Source: Candidatus Omnitrophota bacterium
GTDB taxonomy: Bacteria; Omnitrophota; Gorgyraeia; 2-02-FULL-51-18
DNA: 64,000 bases
Assembly: GCA_945877765.1 (NCBI GenBank)
Contig: CAMDWQ010000007.1
Span: 23,024-87,023, forward strand
Reading direction: 5' to 3'
Positions 13,133 to 19,604 of this stretch are shown piece after piece. Position numbers and translations under genes: made by a program. Every line of letters starts with the position of its first letter. Positions within the stretch are counted from its first letter, which is position 1. The notes under the pieces are model-generated. The model did no database searches and was not told where the DNA came from. It saw nothing but the letters and a program-made list of their open reading frames with translations.

Positions 13133-16100
13133 TTGTCTCATCAAATAATAAGCTTTCAAAAAGCGAAACTCAAAAATATGGGCCAAAAAAACCGCATCCA
13201 ATCATCCCCTAGGATTTACCCGCGGATTCTTCGTGTGATTTCTACCTGTCTTGTGCTTGCATTTACATTCAATGATTTTGCTCATGCGGCACCAGCGGAG
13301 TTGTTCACGCCGCGGATGGTGTTGAACCCGTCCAAGATCGAGTTTTCAGGCTCATTTGCTAAAGTAAGCGATGTATTTCAGGGTAAGAGCCCGCGTCTTT
13401 TGATCCACATTCAAGATGCGCACACCAACACCGGCGCTGAAAAAAATATTTCACAGACGCTGGAGGAATTGATCACCCGGTATCACATTAAAACAGTTTT
13501 CATGGAAGGCGGCACGCGGGATGATTCTCTGGATTTTCTGCGTCCGCTGGCTCCTCAAGAAGTGCGCGAGAAGATCGCGAAAAAATATCTGATGCAGGGT
13601 GAGCTAAACGGCGCCGAATATCTGAGCCTGGCTTCGGACCATTCCTTTAAGATTCTGGGTGTCGAAGACGCGTCGCTTTATCACCAAAATTTAAAGACGT
13701 ACGCCGCCGTCACCAAGCGCCGCGAGGCTGTCCTTTCCTATATAGGACAGATGGACCAGCGGGTTGATAGTATGAAGCGCCGCATTTACCCCAAAGCGCT
13801 CGTTGAGTTTGATGATTTTCTACAAAAATACAAAAATAAAGAAAAAAGCTTCACTGATTATTATACCGTGCTTTCTTCGACGGCCGTGCGTTACGGGATC
13901 AGTCTTCTGGGCTTTCCTCATTTTCTCTCACTGAAGGACCTCCAAGCCAAAGAAGACAGGATTGATTTTAAGAAAGCCAATACCGAACAAGCGGCGCTGG
14001 CAGGCCTTGTGTCCGACAAGACGCTGGCCGCTCACGCCGAAAAGATGAAATCCGGCAATTTAAATCCGCTGCCATTTTACGAGGCTGTTCTCGCCGAAGC
14101 CCATGCCAAGAAAATCAACTTGGGAGACTATCCCAACTTTTCGGCCTACGTAGACTATCTGCGAGATTATTCCAAGATTAAAATGGAGCGCCTCTTAAAC
14201 GAGACACGCATCTTAGAAGAAGTAATTTATCAGAAAGCGCTCCCCGAAGAAGATGTGTTTTACCTCTATCGGCTCGACAAGTACCTCAGCGTCTTAAAGA
14301 GCCTCTTTTCCCTGCAGGCGACGCCCCAGGAGTTTGACGACTATTCACTCCTGCAAAAGGACATGCGCTTTAACACCGCGGTCTGCCTGGCCTATATCAA
14401 CCGTAAATTATATGACCTAGGCAATTACGCCGATGTCGTGGCCACCGATTCTATTTTGGATGAGAACAAAAAAGAAATTGAAGATTTCTACCGCGTGACC
14501 GGCGACCGCGATGAGGTATTTTTAAACAAGTCGCTTGCTGAAATGGAAAAAAACAATATTTCCGCTGCCGTCCTCATCACCGGCGGCTATCACACTCCAA
14601 GCCTTCGTCAAAAAATGAAAGAACGCAACATCTCCTACGCCGTCGTGACTCCCGCGGTTACCGAAGAAACCAATCTCGTGCGTTATGAAAAAATTCTTCT
14701 TTCCCGCGCGGGTCTTGAGGCACAACTTCCTTTAGACAAAAAAGAAATCGTCAGTGGCCGCCAGGATTTTATCAACCCCACGCTTAACGCGGAAGTTCCG
14801 AGGACTCCGATCGTTTCAAAAATTAGTAGTGAATTCCAAATGCTGGGATTTCAACCCAGTACACCTAACAAAACTTTAAATGCTGCTAGGCTAGCTAAGG
14901 GAAAAATAACCCATCAAGATGCGTCCGCCGCGCGGTTGAGCGAGGCTGCTTCCTCTCAATCCCCAACAAAGCCGGCAAAGTTTTCTTTAAAAAGGTGGCT
15001 GTTAATTGGGGTCATCTCGTTTGCAATTTTGCAGATACTTCTTGTAAATGGTTCGCTCTACGTTGCGCTTTCAATACCACCAAGCGGCATGGTCACTGAT
15101 GCGCAGGAGGTCAATGGAGTGAGATCTTTAGGCCCTGTAAACACTATTCCTTACACAAGTATTCCTGCCCCTGGGTTTTTTGTTCGTGTGTTCAAATTTT
15201 TTGGGGGCACTACTAAGGGGGGGAATCCGGTTAAGTTTGAATATACTCCTAATGGTGAGAAGGTTACCCTTCCGGACGGGGAAGTGATATTAATAGTTCC
15301 AAAAAATACTTCAGCGCCTGAAAATGAGGAGGTAACCTCCGAAGCTTTAGGAGACGGTGCACGGTTGGCCAACTACACCCCGGTTTTGGGTATTGTGGCG
15401 GTAGTGGTGTTTATAGCCTCTGTCTTGCAAAATATCTCACGTAAAGCAGATCCAAATTACGTCCCAACGCCGGCAGAGGTGATTGAAGAACAAGCCATGA
15501 TAAACGATATTCGGAGTAGGGCCTTGGAGGTAGCAGGAAAAATTAGGCATGGGATTGGGGACATAGCCAGTGGCAGTATTTCTAAAAATGACAATTCCGT
15601 AAAAATTGCTTCTATATTATTTGAAGGGCTTGACCAAAAGGAAAAAAATATTTTTTTCTCTACTCTGATTGAGATCTTGCGTGAAGTGATCAATCCTGCT
15701 CATCAGTATCATGAAGACACACCAAGAATTTTATCTGTGCTGGCAGATTGGGGTAGGCTCAATCCAGAGAATTTGCAATTTTTAATTGCCCAGTTAAACA
15801 AAGAAGAAAACCCAGGTGTTGCGGAAATTCTCAAGACAGCTATCGGGGCACGAGAAATTACTACTAAACAAAATCGCGAACTTTCTCCTGAAGAGCGCCG
15901 TCAATTCGGGCTTTCTGAAAAACCATTTGATCCTAGAGATGCCAGCAAAGTCCTATTTAATTATAAGAGTGGTCCAATAGATAACGAGATGAAAGAAGGT
16001 AGTATTTTTGGATCATTTCCGTGGATTAGCGAGACTGAAGTAAAAAATACAGAAAAACCAGAGCCATCCGGGGCAGTGGATCCATCCGGAGGGGCGCGGT

Positions 16101-18919
16101 TGGCGGCGAGTCGGACCAAAACGATGAAAAAGTCAGACACGGGGCGACTTCAAAATTCAGCCGATGCCATGGTCAAGGATATTCGTAAGATGGATGGGCA
16201 TTTGCTTGGTCTTGCAAAATTAGTCCAGCGCCAAATGGGTCTTGAGTCCGACAATCCAAAAAAATCTCTGTTAATGATTCCTAATTCAATCCAGAAGCCT
16301 AATTTGAAAAGCTTGGCGGGGAAGCGCGCGGTTTATGCTGATCTTGGCGGCTCGACGCTTCACATGGGAGAGATTGAAATTGGTGTCGATGGAACGATCA
16401 CAGTGTTGTGGGAAAAGCCTATGCCTCTAGGGGATCATGTCTCCGAGGGGGGTTCTAAACTTTTTGATTTCATGGCTCAGCAGATCCTTCAGACGGTCCG
16501 CGAAAAGTCAGGTGATCTTGAACAGCCAAAGATCATGGGTTTTACGTTCTCATTTCCTCATCAAAATGGTGTTGTTATCAAAAAATCCAGCACCAAAGGG
16601 TTTAATTTTAGTGACATCATCGGCCAAAATGTCATGGAGCTAATGAATGAGCGTCTTAAAAAAAGCAGTGCTAAATATGGTATTAAACAACTTGAAGTCG
16701 TTGCAGTTACCAATGATACCGAGGGTGCCATGGTTCAGGGAATGGTGCGCTTCAAAAATGCCCTTGTCAGCGTCATCGCCGGGTCCGGATTTAACACGGC
16801 TGTCTGGTGGCTTAATCAGATGTTTAATATGGAGTCAGGGGGCCTTCGTATTCGGAACAATTGGCTGGGTAAGCATGATTTGAAGGTGATGAAGCGTGGT
16901 GCCGAAGAGCTGATTTCCGGACATTTTTTGGGTCTTCAGCTTCGCGCGCGGCTTTTAGATCTGGTAAGAAACTACGGTCTTTTTGGCGGAAAAGTGACTA
17001 GGGCTCTTAGGCTAAGAAAAGGGATTTCATCCGAAATCGTGACGAGTATTTATGAGGCTCGCAGCAATAGGAAAATACAAGAAATTTTGAGCACTATCGG
17101 AATAACTAACGTAAGTAATCAAGACGCTCAGATCGTCAAGGAAATCTCAAGCGCTCTTGTAGAGCGTTCGTTTAAGGTTAACGCAGGGATCATTGCGGGA
17201 TCATTAGCTAAAACAAAGACAACCAAAAGGGCCCAGGTAGCTGTTGATGGTGCCTTATGGAAAATACCTGCTTACACAAGAGGAGTGCAGAGACAGCTTA
17301 ATCTACTTTTACAGGAACTTAATTTACCCAGAGCCCAAATCAGAAGGGTCAATAATGCTTCCGGAATTGGATCGGCGGTCACGGCGTTAGTTGTTAATTC
17401 TCAACAAGACTCCGCCGCTCGGCTTGCTACTAAAACAGAAGAAACGAATCCCCCATTAACGGTTTACTACGTTGGCCGCGATGATCGATCAATCCAAATA
17501 AGTCATGGAGTGGGATTTGGGACTCAGGTGTACTATAGAGATGTTCCTGAGTCACTGAATTTAAAAAATTTAAATAGACAACAGGCTATGGGGGCACTGG
17601 TACAGATCGCCGATGCACTTGATGCTCAACTTCCCGGAGATAAGCATGATTTACGTTTTCGTCCTAGTAAGGATGATTCGGCTAGAGCAGCAAATAAAGA
17701 TATTCGCCAAAAAATATCAAATGTAGTGCAAGGATTAAAATTTGATATTCCCGGTGCAGCCCGGCTTGCTACGAGCCCGGCGAAGTCAGTTGTGGATGAT
17801 AAGTCAGCTGTTTTAAATGTGCTTCAGGACAGCCTTGCCACCCAAGGTTCTCGTTTATCATCAGAGAGTCATTTTGGTGGATCTCAAGCTGAATTAATTC
17901 CAGACACCACCCAAGTCGCAGCGCGTCTTGCGGCTGCTAATGAGAGTAAAATTTCCCTAGCAAAGCGCCTGCAGTATCCCTTTCTTTTATTGTTAACGTC
18001 GCTAAGCATCGTGACGTTTGATTTTGCCCAGGAGAACGGACAAGGATCAATAGCGATTGATATTCAAGTGCAAGACGCTGACCCCGCTGTTTCATCAATT
18101 AGGTTACATCCGAGGCAGTTTAAGGCTGCTATAGCGGGTGAACTGATCAATTTTATCAACACCGCAGCTTTTGAAGCCGCTGGCAATGCGCGCAATCTGT
18201 TAAGCCAAAATGTTCCCGCATGGAGCTATGAGGATGCGGTATGGAATCCTCTGATGAAAGCGCCCCTGACTAACGCGAGCGGTATTCAAGCGGTGGAAGT
18301 ATTTCTTCCCGCGACGATTTTAAAGAATGTGGCAGATCTTCGTCAGGCGCTTCAAAAGGCCAGCATGGTGTCTAAGAGCCGCGGGGTTCACATCGTGATC
18401 AATATTCTTTCTAAGGAGGGAAACCTTACGCCGTCCGAAAGAACTCTAATTGACAAAGAAATTTCCGCCATAGGGAATTCTCGTTTAGGGGTAGATTATC
18501 GCTCGGTCAGCGAGGGACAGACGCTATCAGAAGCTGCCCTGGAAAAACTTGCCGAGCAGCAAGAAGGCCTGGAAAAATTAAAGCAAGGGACTACTAAAGT
18601 AATGTTAATCGCCAGCTCTTCTAACGAGCAGGAGATTTTGAGTCAGATTGGAACGATTGATGCCGTTTACCGGGATAGCATTTTTTCGGCGGGCGCCGAT
18701 ATTCTGTCCAACGAACAGGCAAATCTTGGCGCGTTTTCTCTGGCTGAGATGATGGCTGTTTCACTTTACCAGGCCATGGGACTTGAGACGATGCTACCCT
18801 CCATCCTGAATTTACGATCTGTTATCGTGTCTGGGCGCCGTTTGTTTATTTTTACCTTCAATCTCAACCAGGAACTGGTTTTACTTCGCCTGGCACGCCA
18901 AGCCGAAATCGCCGCTTAA
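13133..18919 (+). CDS. giant (1928 aa) secreted/membrane modular protein: N-terminal signal peptide, Tiki/ChaN-like(?) domain, 2 TM helices, helical module, complete eukaryote-type hexokinase domain (aa ~1060-1425), and two C-terminal modules of unknown function
   Basis: Single uninterrupted ORF. Signal peptide ...VLAFTFNDFAHA/AP. TM helices at nt ~14990-15065 and ~15380-15425. Hexokinase hallmarks: ADLGGSTLHMGEIEIG, MGFTFSFPHQ, STKGFNFSD, VAVTNDTEGAMV, VIAGSGFNTAVW, VAVDGALWKIPAYTR...ASGIGSAVTA. Seven [G/A]ARLA motifs. An alternative start MGQKN lies at 13178. Confidence 0.8.
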   Translation: MSHQIISFQKAKLKNMGQKNRIQSSPRIYPRILRVISTCLVLAFTFNDFAHAAPAELFTPRMVLNPSKIEFSGSFAKVSDVFQGKSPRLLIHIQDAHTNTGAEKNISQTLEELITRYHIKTVFMEGGTRDDSLDFLRPLAPQEVREKIAKKYLMQGELNGAEYLSLASDHSFKILGVEDASLYHQNLKTYAAVTKRREAVLSYIGQMDQRVDSMKRRIYPKALVEFDDFLQKYKNKEKSFTDYYTVLSSTAVRYGISLLGFPHFLSLKDLQAKEDRIDFKKANTEQAALAGLVSDKTLAAHAEKMKSGNLNPLPFYEAVLAEAHAKKINLGDYPNFSAYVDYLRDYSKIKMERLLNETRILEEVIYQKALPEEDVFYLYRLDKYLSVLKSLFSLQATPQEFDDYSLLQKDMRFNTAVCLAYINRKLYDLGNYADVVATDSILDENKKEIEDFYRVTGDRDEVFLNKSLAEMEKNNISAAVLITGGYHTPSLRQKMKERNISYAVVTPAVTEETNLVRYEKILLSRAGLEAQLPLDKKEIVSGRQDFINPTLNAEVPRTPIVSKISSEFQMLGFQPSTPNKTLNAARLAKGKITHQDASAARLSEAASSQSPTKPAKFSLKRWLLIGVISFAILQILLVNGSLYVALSIPPSGMVTDAQEVNGVRSLGPVNTIPYTSIPAPGFFVRVFKFFGGTTKGGNPVKFEYTPNGEKVTLPDGEVILIVPKNTSAPENEEVTSEALGDGARLANYTPVLGIVAVVVFIASVLQNISRKADPNYVPTPAEVIEEQAMINDIRSRALEVAGKIRHGIGDIASGSISKNDNSVKIASILFEGLDQKEKNIFFSTLIEILREVINPAHQYHEDTPRILSVLADWGRLNPENLQFLIAQLNKEENPGVAEILKTAIGAREITTKQNRELSPEERRQFGLSEKPFDPRDASKVLFNYKSGPIDNEMKEGSIFGSFPWISETEVKNTEKPEPSGAVDPSGGARLAASRTKTMKKSDTGRLQNSADAMVKDIRKMDGHLLGLAKLVQRQMGLESDNPKKSLLMIPNSIQKPNLKSLAGKRAVYADLGGSTLHMGEIEIGVDGTITVLWEKPMPLGDHVSEGGSKLFDFMAQQILQTVREKSGDLEQPKIMGFTFSFPHQNGVVIKKSSTKGFNFSDIIGQNVMELMNERLKKSSAKYGIKQLEVVAVTNDTEGAMVQGMVRFKNALVSVIAGSGFNTAVWWLNQMFNMESGGLRIRNNWLGKHDLKVMKRGAEELISGHFLGLQLRARLLDLVRNYGLFGGKVTRALRLRKGISSEIVTSIYEARSNRKIQEILSTIGITNVSNQDAQIVKEISSALVERSFKVNAGIIAGSLAKTKTTKRAQVAVDGALWKIPAYTRGVQRQLNLLLQELNLPRAQIRRVNNASGIGSAVTALVVNSQQDSAARLATKTEETNPPLTVYYVGRDDRSIQISHGVGFGTQVYYRDVPESLNLKNLNRQQAMGALVQIADALDAQLPGDKHDLRFRPSKDDSARAANKDIRQKISNVVQGLKFDIPGAARLATSPAKSVVDDKSAVLNVLQDSLATQGSRLSSESHFGGSQAELIPDTTQVAARLAAANESKISLAKRLQYPFLLLLTSLSIVTFDFAQENGQGSIAIDIQVQDADPAVSSIRLHPRQFKAAIAGELINFINTAAFEAAGNARNLLSQNVPAWSYEDAVWNPLMKAPLTNASGIQAVEVFLPATILKNVADLRQALQKASMVSKSRGVHIVINILSKEGNLTPSERTLIDKEISAIGNSRLGVDYRSVSEGQTLSEAALEKLAEQQEGLEKLKQGTTKVMLIASSSNEQEILSQIGTIDAVYRDSIFSAGADILSNEQANLGAFSLAEMMAVSLYQAMGLETMLPSILNLRSVIVSGRRLFIFTFNLNQELVLLRLARQAEIAA

Positions 18920-19011: not shown

Positions 19012-19221
19012 ATGTCACAGGTACTTGTATCCACCAAATATCAGGTCGTGATTCCCAAGGATGTCCGAAGGCAATTGGAAATACATCCCGGGCAGAAGAT
19101 GAGTTGTATTGCGATTAATCGGGCGATTCATTTGGTGCCGGTTAAGCCGATGAGTCAGTCAAGGGGGATTGCCAAAGGGATTTCTCTTGTTGGATATCGA
19201 GAGAAAAAGGACCGCATGTGA
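19012..19221 (+). CDS. vapB: type II antitoxin, AbrB/MazE/SpoVT-type (VapB-like)
   Basis: 69-aa MSQVLVSTKYQVVIPKDVRRQLEIHPGQKM swapped-hairpin DNA-binding domain; 4-nt overlap with the downstream PIN gene. Confidence 0.7.
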   Translation: MSQVLVSTKYQVVIPKDVRRQLEIHPGQKMSCIAINRAIHLVPVKPMSQSRGIAKGISLVGYREKKDRM

Positions 19222-19604
19222 TTGTTATTGATTCCTCGGGGTGGCTTGAGTATTTTATGAATGGGCCTCTGGCGGAGCGCTACGCTTTGTATTTTTCAAA
19301 ATCTTCAAAAATATTGACGCCTGCGGTGGTGCTTTATGAAGTATTTAAGATTTTAAAAAGAGATGCGAGTGAAGAAGTGGCGTTGGAAGCCGCGGCGCAG
19401 ATGGGGGAGACTGAGATTGTGCCTCTATCGGACGCTATTTCCTATCATGCGGCCAATATTTCACTCGAACATCATTTGGCGATGGCTGACTCAATGGTTT
19501 ACGCGACCGCAGATTTTTGCAAAGCTAAGCTTGTGACCAGTGATGCGGATTTCAAAAATCTCCCAAATGTAATTTATCTGGATTCACAAGAACCGGAAAG
19601 GTAA
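19218..19604 (+). CDS. vapC: PIN-domain toxin
   Basis: 128 aa with MIVIDSSGWLEYF (Asp5), LYEVFKIL (Glu) and TSDADF (Asp) PIN acidic residues; the operon architecture is classic vapBC. Confidence 0.75.
   Translation: MIVIDSSGWLEYFMNGPLAERYALYFSKSSKILTPAVVLYEVFKILKRDASEEVALEAAAQMGETEIVPLSDAISYHAANISLEHHLAMADSMVYATADFCKAKLVTSDADFKNLPNVIYLDSQEPER

Follow-up and report, generated by a model that had tools for sequence, protein, structure and literature searches.

Viral polyproteins, such as those of picornaviruses, potyviruses and nidoviruses, are made as one product whose units are split at a junction motif specific to the viral protease, and such a protease, when placed at or close to the N-terminus, can release itself in cis. 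In Vibrio and its relatives, MARTX (multifunctional autoprocessing repeats-in-toxin) toxins are giant chains of unrelated, swappable enzyme modules with a built-in protease domain, which cuts small-Leu-small sites in the unstructured linkers between effectors, beginning with the sites next to itself and turning to the others afterwards (PMC2900308).

Another group of relevance is the TIKI superfamily (Tiki1/2, TraB/PrgY, RRSP, erythromycin esterases, ChaN and HopBA1). ChaN and Ere are relatives of this fold that are not proteases, and we know of no TIKI member described as processing its own polyprotein.

Within the phylum Omnitrophota, giant 'multi-enzyme metabolic cluster' proteins and Archaeovorins have been catalogued (bioRxiv 10.1101/2023.11.21.568195; 10.64898/2026.06.07.730766). 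The proteins treated in these preprints are at least 10,000 aa long, combine sugar-metabolism and signalling domains, including hexokinase and PGI, and carry a signal peptide and/or membrane helices. Text searches of the first preprint gave no occurrence of the terms 'polyprotein', 'cleavage site' and 'TraB', those of the second none of 'polyprotein', 'cleavage', 'motif' and 'TraB', and a shared TIKI-like N-terminal domain is not described in the sections read.

Here we describe a 1,928-aa protein of the same phylum, encoded in a 64-kb stretch of DNA (hereafter, the window). It shares hexokinase, and at family level PGI, with the far longer proteins of those preprints, as well as membrane helices. 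Its organization resembles a MARTX array, unrelated modules being joined by linkers that hold a short motif; the form of that motif, small-small-Arg-Leu/Met-small in disordered linkers, would follow the same logic, with a candidate protease and putative cleavage. Unlike the MARTX protease, an InsP6-activated cysteine protease domain that lies after the effectors, the candidate here is N-terminal and of TIKI type. Pfam searches of the 1,928-aa protein for the marks of MARTX returned neither a cysteine protease domain nor RTX repeats, and the protein shows neither internal repeats nor matches to Pfam repeat families, whereas MARTX toxins have glycine-rich RTX-type repeats at both ends. The modules of the family are metabolic or regulatory (hexokinase, PGI, PTS EI, HATPase, methyltransferases) rather than known toxins, and paralogs are numerous within a genome, one MAG having at least 11. 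With viral polyproteins the protein shares several functional units and a short conserved junction motif within one translation product, whereas its gene is chromosomal, stands among housekeeping genes of a cellular organism, and encodes a different candidate protease fold. In the literature searched, no description of such a junction-motif polyprotein system was found. We put at roughly 40% the probability that the gene product is a polyprotein that processes itself, its TIKI-type N-terminal domain cutting at the junction motifs.

Results

Seven copies of a five-residue motif lie in one modular protein

The pattern [AG]ARL[AS] occurs seven times in the open reading frame, at aa 584, 599, 742, 987, 1428, 1542 and 1596 (Table 1), six times as ARLA and once as ARLS. 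These are the copies that a preliminary description of the DNA had listed, at nucleotide positions within 3 nt of ours. An eighth ARL, RARLL at aa 1272 within the hexokinase fold, does not match the motif. From composition, 0.15 occurrences of [AG]ARL are expected; the best of 20,000 shuffles reached 3 and none reached 7, which bears out the earlier view that the motif is non-random. Six-frame translation of the window yielded only two further matches, one out of frame inside the same gene and the other in a region without a listed plus-strand ORF of at least 120 aa. As all other genes of the window lack the motif, there is no proteome-wide bias within it.

Ala, Leu and Arg are common in the protein, as an origin by chance, composition, or DNA repeats and duplications would have it. 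The Arg and Leu codons nevertheless vary among copies (AGG/CGG/CGT and CTA/TTG/CTT, respectively), self-BLAST of the protein detected no internal repeats, and the sole DNA repeat in the gene is the motif-coding stretch itself; differing codons and the lack of protein repeats rule out a DNA-level repeat or internal duplication as the source. Given also the shuffles, the absence of the motif from the other window genes and a roughly 10-fold excess over compositional expectation in 57 relatives, the counts already refute such an origin, and its probability is negligible.

Table 1. Coordinates of the modular-protein gene, its modules and its motif copies in the window
Feature	Position (nt)	Strand	Basis
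Modular-protein gene, 1,928 aa	13133..18919	+	ORF list and translation
N-terminal hydrophobic helix, aa ~29-52, ending in AHA followed by AP	13217..13288	+	Predicted helix, model residues 14-37
N-terminal TIKI/ChaN/Ere-superfamily domain, aa ~60-533, with large helical insertion	13310..14731	+	
Copy 1, AARLA, aa 584-588, disordered linker behind N-terminal domain	14882..14896	+	pLDDT ~30-39
Copy 2, AARLS, aa 599-603, 20 residues upstream of hydrophobic helix 1	14927..14941	+	
Hydrophobic helix 1, aa 624-642	15002..15058	+	Kyte-Doolittle scan, mean 2.14
Copy 3, GARLA, aa 742-746, between hydrophobic helices, 4-9 aa before helix 2	15356..15370	+	
Hydrophobic helix 2, aa 751-769	15383..15439	+	Kyte-Doolittle scan, mean 2.30
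217-aa module, aa 770-986, no relatives detected	15440..16090	+	Pfam: 0 matches
Copy 4, GARLA, aa 987-991, hexokinase module begins 14 aa downstream	16091..16105	+	
Hexokinase module, aa ~1001-1425	16133..17407	+	Pfam Hexokinase_1 and Hexokinase_2; envelope from jackhmmer
Copy 5, AARLA, aa 1428-1432, hexokinase module ends 3 aa upstream	17414..17428	+	
Copy 6, AARLA, aa 1542-1546, follows 113-aa module without detected relatives	17756..17770	+	
Copy 7, AARLA, aa 1596-1600, adjoins C-terminal domain on its upstream side	17918..17932	+	
C-terminal domain, aa ~1601-1928, no relatives detected	17933..18916	+	Pfam, PDB: no match

The true start is probably the ATG at 13178; P0001, a 98%-identical relative, begins at the residue encoded there. 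The predicted N-terminal helix has the look of a signal peptide or of a membrane anchor, and an A-x-A reading of its end is putative. A comparable N-terminal helix is present in 47 of the 54 motif-clade proteins (see below) that begin with M. Both hexokinase domains score above their curated Pfam thresholds (PF00349, E 2e-22, 80.4 bits against a cut-off of 24.3; PF03727, E 2.1e-21, 76.8 bits against 24), which places the module in the hexokinase family, and they are the only domains that Pfam finds in the whole protein. For the four modules without annotation, sequence searches of Pfam and PDB gave zero matches, and among 76 relatives the 217-aa module matches P0001 alone. When the C-terminal domain and the hexokinase module were searched against large databases, the results were of no use and did not include even P0001, which makes a claim that these modules lack relatives a weak one. 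The C-terminal domain opens with a basic stretch and a hydrophobic, signal-like segment (aa ~1606-1633). Around the gene, the window encodes housekeeping functions (PEP carboxylase, agmatine deiminase, lipid A acyltransferase, AroD, PurB and PurQL).

The proposal that every copy marks a module junction mostly holds: 584 and 599 lie in the linker behind the N-terminal domain, 987 and 1428 flank the hexokinase module, and 1542 and 1596 delimit two short segments preceding the C-terminal domain. It needs correction for copy 742, which had been put after a pair of transmembrane helices and lies instead between the two hydrophobic helices, upstream of the second. Should the N-terminal helix be a signal peptide, this two-helix hairpin would put site 742 across the membrane from the N-terminal domain, a topology that speaks against the polyprotein view.

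The N-terminal domain has a TIKI-superfamily fold

All 76 relatives align with the protein over aa ~30-525 only, and a profile search with this region retrieved 10,534 clusters, the domain being N-terminal in all matches listed. On this alignment we define an Omnitrophota family of modular proteins headed by a conserved N-terminal domain of ~500 aa and continued by variable modules, with single proteins of up to more than 7,000 aa and many paralogs per genome.

The domain has the TIKI-superfamily fold, an alpha/beta core with a parallel beta-sheet between helices. Its invariant residues are Q94, D95, H97, E125, E162, E178, R459, G484, G485 and H487; of 202 family proteins, at least 200 keep Q94, D95, H97, E125, E162, E178, R459 and H487, and 201-202 keep the elements D95-A-H97, E125, G484-G-Y-H487 and R459, consistent with a putative 2His/2Glu-type site, in which acid-x-His stands on one strand, Glu on the next and His in a C-terminal G-x-x-H. 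The TIKI-family endopeptidase RRSP depends on an acid-x-His, Glu and His set (PMC6254334), and the invariant pattern matches the set described for RRSP and Bcr135 in a comparison made by sequence, without 3D superposition. The early assignment to a Tiki/TraB/ChaN type is thus upheld for the fold, and the domain, a putative hydrolase or endopeptidase, has an intact catalytic-type residue set. At E ≤ 10, the domain of our protein matches none of PF04187 (ChaN), PF01963 (TraB) and PF05139 (Ere); 8 of 31 N-terminal domains match PF04187, with a best E of 2e-4, and no Pfam family of the superfamily scores above threshold. This absence of curated-model matches marks the domain as a distant, unclassified branch. 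Compared with the rest of the superfamily, it has a helical insertion of ~280 aa and is fused to kilobases of downstream modules. In an AlphaFold prediction of the domain with its linker, the first two sites were disordered (pLDDT ~30) and were not placed on the domain; the run is therefore uninformative about docking.

The motif is confined to one clade and brackets modules

Among the 202 family proteins, the motif in its family-wide form, G/A-[ATSG]-R-[LMV]-[ASTV], is confined to one contiguous clade of the N-terminal domain. The 57 proteins of this clade hold 529 sites in 184,200 aa (2.9 per 1,000 aa), where 50 are expected; in the remaining clades the density is 0.20 per 1,000 aa. Absence of the motif from relatives, which would have refuted the earlier proposal, is therefore not what is seen. 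Sites are spaced by a median of 270 aa, the first lying a median of 53 aa behind the N-terminal domain, and their flanks are disorder-prone, with an excess of P, A, S, T and Q (p = 3e-52). The Arg never varies, and the motif is limited to five residues, with no extended context and no shared homology in the flanks.

The other clades were searched for one shared recurring motif of their own and none was found, recurring peptides being present there in isolated proteins only. Enriched words in those clades (ILTNQRTP, VVCP and ITKDV) proved to be single-copy ends of the N-terminal domain.

Copies within one protein tend to vary together, as GTRL (13 copies in P0154), GARM (12 in P0200) or GARL (23 in P0133), and such concerted change is expected if a single recognition partner reads all copies. 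A reading without a partner would make the motif a structural linker, a helix cap or hinge at domain borders that is retained as motif-carrying module cassettes recombine. Its constant position at module borders and the recurrence of hexokinase-type modules with flanking sites in different proteins suit this reading, whereas Arg invariance and concerted variant switching are hard to explain without a reader, the flanks lack homology, and AlphaFold predicts no structure at the sites; we regard it as improbable.

The hexokinase modules of three different proteins have a site 1-17 aa upstream and another 1-3 aa downstream, and none inside. In P0002, the domain start implied by a PGI match is closely preceded by a related SARLA. 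Close bracketing of both hexokinase ends is predicted by excision and need not follow if the pentapeptide is instead a short linear motif that is bound and left uncut, by which the modules would be organised or targeted while the chain stays intact. Its partner might then be a chaperone, machinery for secretion or sorting, a scaffold, or the N-terminal domain itself. Docking also sits poorly with the copy directly behind a hydrolase-type domain and with the resemblance of small-small-Arg-hydrophobic-small to protease subsites. It is nonetheless in keeping with the typical nature of binding elements, which are short motifs in disordered linkers, with the lack of context beyond five residues, and with the treatment of giant Omnitrophota multi-enzyme proteins as intact membrane-associated assemblies in published work. 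Sites also occur upstream of internal hydrophobic segments beyond chance (within 40 aa of 22 of the 93 such segments in the clade; random mean 12.3). Weighing these points, we consider uncut docking rather unlikely.

Motif-rich ORFs track the N-terminal domain

A survey covered 80 loci with ~336,000 aa of neighbouring ORFs. Every motif-rich ORF either bears the N-terminal domain, continues such a gene downstream, or is cut at the locus edge, its N-terminus falling outside the locus sequence. Other neighbouring ORFs are near background density (~0.4 per 1,000 aa), and locus L001 shows both features as well; together with the window, this counters the possibility, raised at the outset, that the motif is equally frequent elsewhere. 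True split genes would have argued for cleavage in trans. Apparent cases, with an N-terminal-domain ORF followed by a motif-rich one, were traced at L002, L057, L072 and L076 to masked N runs that break the frame, and at L060 and L061 to single in-frame stops. A conserved neighbour gene, for example for a protease, was sought at the loci and none was found, the neighbours being housekeeping genes that differ between loci. Stand-alone N-terminal-domain proteins exist, such as a 534-aa ORF in L073.

The use of Leu or Met at the fourth motif position tends to be common to paralogs of one genome (mostly ARM in CAYSKO, all ARL in DATJEK and JAHFFN). Covariation of the L/M/T variants with residues of the N-terminal domain gave no clean signal, in a test confounded by relatedness. 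Taken together, these two observations agree with a genome-wide trans-acting factor at least as well as with strict cis specificity, and genome-wide variant usage leaves room for either such a factor or an uncleaved docking motif. Positions 98, 127 and 486 of the domain differ between motif and non-motif clades. The catalytic set is equally intact in ~140 sampled family members without a shared recurring motif, so the activity of the domain does not by itself require such sites.

A separate, lineage-specific protease might cut the sites in trans, leaving the N-terminal domain another job: it could be a small-molecule esterase or hydrolase, bind a cofactor as ChaN does, or carry out just one step of maturation. 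Besides genome-wide L/M usage, which no domain position tracks, the conservation of the domain in motif-less clades and its stand-alone forms favour this arrangement. Against it stand a motif excess seen, across the window and ~336,000 aa of neighbours, only in N-terminal-domain proteins, their continuations and edge-cut fragments, the lack of a protease gene among conserved neighbours, and motif presence that tracks the tree of the domain. We judge a trans protease unlikely.

Discussion

The data are best accommodated, in our view, by a self-processing polyprotein. The N-terminal ~500-aa TIKI/ChaN/Ere-type hydrolase domain would be a sequence-specific endopeptidase recognising small-small-Arg-Leu/Met-small (here, [A/G]-A-R-L-[A/S]) where disordered linkers separate the modules. 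It would first release itself at the adjoining sites, aa 584 and 599, and then free the downstream parts: the membrane hairpin, the 217-aa module, the hexokinase of ~440 aa, the two short segments and the C-terminal domain. Taken separately, cleavage at the motif sites seems reasonably probable, and if cleavage occurs, the N-terminal domain is quite probably the enzyme. We infer that the scissile bond would lie between Leu and Ala/Ser rather than between Arg and Leu. The reading given in the preliminary description, of processing sites or of linker/docking motifs, is thereby supported in part.

By analogy, the same layout in dozens of related giant proteins suggests that they, too, may be cut into separate enzymes in the manner of viral polyproteins. 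A broader proposal, which we hold to be doubtful, is that in a major lineage of Omnitrophota many metabolic and regulatory enzymes are produced as polyproteins, exported or anchored in the membrane, and cut by a built-in TIKI-type protease at G-A-R-L/M-A. A cellular organism would then be using, on a large scale, either a polyprotein strategy like that of viruses or a MARTX-like delivery of cargo directed at prey or host cells.

The giants of Omnitrophota have been catalogued while their working is unexplained, and it is a puzzle that ATP-dependent enzymes of cytosolic type apparently stand behind signal peptides. A junction peptide combined with a protease-type N-terminal domain provides a concrete, testable hypothesis, in which the giants would be precursors from which enzymes of ordinary size are cut. 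If true, bacteria would have a polyprotein system of a new kind, and the TIKI fold a role not assigned to it before. Genome annotation would change because one gene would give many proteins, and reconstructions of metabolism could overlook or miscount enzymes such as hexokinase or PGI; a simple sequence rule, applied at the more than 500 sites in the sampled proteins, would split them into candidate mature products.

A recurrent motif in a giant modular protein

All seven sites, which fit the pattern [AG]ARL[AS], lie in a single open reading frame encoding a 1,928-aa protein (the query). Its likely start codon is the tabulated ATG, because P0001, a database relative 98% identical to the query, begins 15 residues later than the open frame. 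The seven motif positions reported in the preliminary description were all recovered to within 3 nt. Composition predicts 0.15 copies of [AG]ARL, and at most 3 occurred in any of 20,000 shuffled versions of the query, making chance a negligible explanation. An eighth ARL, RARLL, lies within the hexokinase fold and lacks flanking small residues. Six-frame translation of the window gave only two further matches, neither genic; Arg and Leu codons vary between copies; self-BLAST revealed no internal repeat in the query; and the sole DNA repeat within the giant gene is the stretch encoding the motif. From the shuffles, six-frame scan, codon differences and repeat searches, we conclude that the motif is genuine, operates at the level of the protein and is gene-specific within the window.

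Coordinates of the giant gene, its motif copies and other features
Feature	Record	Nucleotides	Strand	Residues
Giant gene, open reading frame	window	13133-18919	+	1-1928
Likely start codon (ATG)	window	13178	+	
N-terminal signal-like segment	window	13178-13288	+	
Motif copy 1 (start)	window	14882	+	584
Motif copy 2 (start)	window	14927	+	599
Motif copy 3 (start)	window	15356	+	742
Motif copy 4 (start)	window	16091	+	987
Hexokinase domain (Pfam)	window		+	1032-1420
RARLL	window		+	1272
Motif copy 5 (start)	window	17414	+	1428
Motif copy 6 (start)	window	17756	+	1542
Motif copy 7 (start)	window	17918	+	1596
Second signal-like segment, AAANESKISLAKRLQYPFLLLLTSLSIVTFDFAQ	window	17933-18028	+	1601-1633
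AbrB/SpoVT-like ORF (VSTKYQVVIPKDVRRQL) and overlapping PIN-domain gene	window	19012-19604	+	
Stand-alone N-domain gene	L073	9845-11449		
In-frame TAA	L060	6579-6581		
In-frame TAA	L061	14228-14230		

The genes adjoining the giant gene are housekeeping genes, those beside a relative are other housekeeping genes, and comparison of the two loci revealed no conserved partner. Directly downstream, an ORF of 69 aa whose N-terminus is AbrB/SpoVT-like overlaps by 4 nt a PIN-domain gene of 128 aa (Pfam E = 6e-17); by sequence the two look like a VapBC-type toxin-antitoxin pair. Over the full window (1-64000) the + strand carries nearly all of the long ORFs, and 31 of 32 2-kb windows show positive GC skew, the cumulative value climbing from 0.14 to 3.13; this suggests strong gene co-orientation on one replication arm.

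A large family headed by a shared N-domain

Hexokinase is the only Pfam domain in the query, and an NCBIfam scan gave no match. A search of a 5.8-billion-protein collection returned 76 relatives of 1,000-3,400 aa, which share with the query only residues ~30-525, the N-domain region; their downstream domains are unrelated and include PGI, PTS enzyme I, HATPase, methyltransferases, protein kinases, response regulators and phosphoglucomutase, among others. Searches of this collection with C-domain or hexokinase fragments missed even P0001, so their negatives are untrustworthy. An N-domain profile matched 10,534 of 1.84 billion cluster representatives at E <= 1e-3 (7,459 at E <= 1e-30); among the matches listed, the domain stands at the extreme N-terminus in 150 of 150, and protein lengths reach 7,482 aa.

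Species-representative genomes contained 147 relatives, in MAGs all labelled Omnitrophota, 'uncultured Planctomycetia' or 'Eisenbacteria', with numerous paralogs within single genomes (at least 11 in nzgw292). The nearest N-domain there, at locus L002, is 74% identical to that of the query. Many MAGs behind loci L002-L081, whose N-domains reach 74% identity to the query, carry the label 'uncultured Planctomycetia' or 'Candidatus Eisenbacteria'; these labels look unreliable, source-named relatives being mostly Candidatus Omnitrophota/Omnitrophica. At one locus the N-domain genuinely forms a protein by itself (534 aa, free of masked bases), with a GlmS-like gene directly 3' of it; the TIKI-like domain therefore also occurs without downstream modules.

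The motif marks one clade and its inter-module linkers

Neither outcome that the preliminary description named as refuting, orthologs devoid of the motif or a similar frequency elsewhere, was seen in the sequences sampled. The closest ~22 relatives have up to 12 [AG]ARL copies each and more distant ones have none; a core of [GA]-A-R-L-[ASTV] emerges from 109 sites, with no conservation beyond it. When 202 proteins are arranged by how similar their N-domains are, the generalised motif [AG]-[ATSG]-R-[LMV]-[ASTV] is restricted to one contiguous clade, with 529 sites in 57 proteins (184,200 aa; 2.87 per 1,000 aa; 50 expected) vs 0.20 per 1,000 aa outside it. GARLA is the commonest form (172), followed by GARMA (74), AARLA (50), GARLS (42) and GTRLA (22), and one form is often used throughout a protein (13 GTRL in P0154, 12 GARM in P0200, 23 GARL in the 7,022-aa P0133). 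The family gene at locus L001 contains all 12 of the in-frame copies, its neighbours none. Across 80 genomic loci, ORFs without an N-domain average ~0.4 sites per 1,000 aa, and those with at least three are all family-gene continuations or edge-cut giant-gene fragments, the continuations following masked N runs or a single in-frame stop.

At two loci a lone in-frame TAA separates an N-domain ORF from a long, motif-bearing same-frame continuation; the stop may be an error of sequencing, may mark a pseudogene or be read through, or may divide a real pair of genes for protease and substrate. Eight relatives that lie beyond the clade or border on it (P0028, P0056, P0072, P0073, P0014, P0008, P0150 and P0053) show recurring peptides particular to themselves: QMGKRAEVR x3, ARSEVR x3, RSEAR x5, [AG]ASLG[DR] x5, [SA]GAR-x-A x11, GGRMA x2, RDTAMQMP x5 and FSKAFA(D/N)NP x5. 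These may be lineage-specific GARLA equivalents or else ordinary repeats.

Motif flanks are rich in P, A, S, T and Q, poor in aromatics and Cys, and higher in disorder propensity than random positions (p = 3e-52); pLDDT is ~30 around the first two query sites. Within the clade the first site follows the N-domain end by a median of 53 aa, and sites are a median of 270 aa apart. The proposed placement at module boundaries largely held: in three different proteins (query/P0001, P0002 and P0081) a site lies 1-17 aa before the hexokinase fold, another 1-3 aa after it and none inside, in P0002 a related SARLA shortly precedes the PGI domain start implied by the match, and other Pfam domains of relatives likewise fall between sites. 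Two other readings of the sites are a docking element on an uncut polypeptide, which we consider doubtful, and a linker element without a partner, which appears improbable.

Membrane topology

The query N-terminus (basic stretch, hydrophobic helix, A-H-A|A-P) resembles a Sec signal, as do those of 47 of 54 M-starting clade members. Were this a signal, both the N-domain and, past a two-helix hairpin, the hexokinase would lie outside the cytoplasm and the site at residue 742 inside. Our reading of the sequence by the positive-inside rule points to the reverse hairpin orientation. The same puzzle, glycolytic domains predicted outside the cell, is noted in published work on Omnitrophota giants. 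Of 93 internal hydrophobic segments, 22 follow a motif copy by no more than 40 aa, more often than by chance (random mean 12.3, maximum 20 in 200 trials), and so do all three in the query. After the last copy, the second signal-like segment resembles the query's own N-terminal one, both running from a basic stretch through a hydrophobic run to F-x-DFA. Cutting at the motif could expose new signal- or anchor-like N-termini.

A candidate self-processing polyprotein

AlphaFold2, given a 31-sequence alignment, produced a confident N-domain model (pLDDT 85, pTM 0.75) in which a large helical insertion accompanies a small alpha/beta core and the tail is disordered past residue ~533. Each of Q94, D95, H97, E125, E162, E178, R459, G484, G485 and H487 is shared by 200-202 of the 202 family proteins, and the acid-x-His / Glu / His arrangement is that described for RRSP, where the set is essential by mutagenesis and has been proposed to be superfamily-wide (PMC6254334). 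The suggested TIKI/TraB/ChaN-type identity is supported for the fold and residue set, but not as Pfam-level membership: ChaN matched only 8 of 31 N-domains, weakly (best E = 2e-4), and a PDB sequence search with the N-domain gave no match.

A polyprotein is the simplest account of the motif observations, because the five-residue motif has an invariant Arg, its sites occupy disordered linkers at exact domain borders, the first copy directly follows a domain of hydrolase type, some relatives of which are sequence-specific endopeptidases, the motif is restricted to N-domain-headed proteins, and all copies within a protein switch form in concert. Cleavage at the sites seems reasonably probable and, given cleavage, the N-domain is quite probably the cutting enzyme, so that we put the full statement at about 0.4. 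A strict cis version is weaker, because the N-domain is equally conserved in clades without the shared motif, the choice of variant is largely genome-wide, none of the N-domain residues follows the motif variant, and AlphaFold gave no docking signal; cutting by a separate trans-acting protease, which the first three of these points would also fit, we judge unlikely. Motif and non-motif clades differ at 98 (S/T vs C), 127 (G vs A) and 486 (Y vs F), adjoining catalytic-type residues; a bearing on motif recognition is only suggestive.

Of two preprints on Omnitrophota giant proteins, the text of the 2026 one (bioRxiv 10.64898/2026.06.07.730766) lacks the words 'polyprotein', 'cleavage', 'motif' and 'TraB'. 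That of the 2023 one (bioRxiv 10.1101/2023.11.21.568195) lacks 'polyprotein', 'cleavage site' and 'TraB', and raises possible proteolytic processing only for C39 peptidase-like domains. In the sections consulted, neither describes a recurring junction motif or shared TIKI-like N-domain. A full-text literature search for Omnitrophota with polyprotein found nothing.

In MARTX toxins the protease cuts at small-Leu-small sites within the linkers that join effector modules (PMC2900308), and the self-processing proposed here follows the same logic of cuts in inter-module linkers, as well as the release logic of viral polyproteins. By analogy we would favour Leu/Met at P1 and Ala/Ser at P1'; a scissile bond after Arg instead is possible. 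Unlike known autoprocessing modular polyproteins, the proposed cleavage would involve another protease fold, other cargo and a very large family; the N-domain would cut the polypeptide at the motif and free enzymes of ordinary size.
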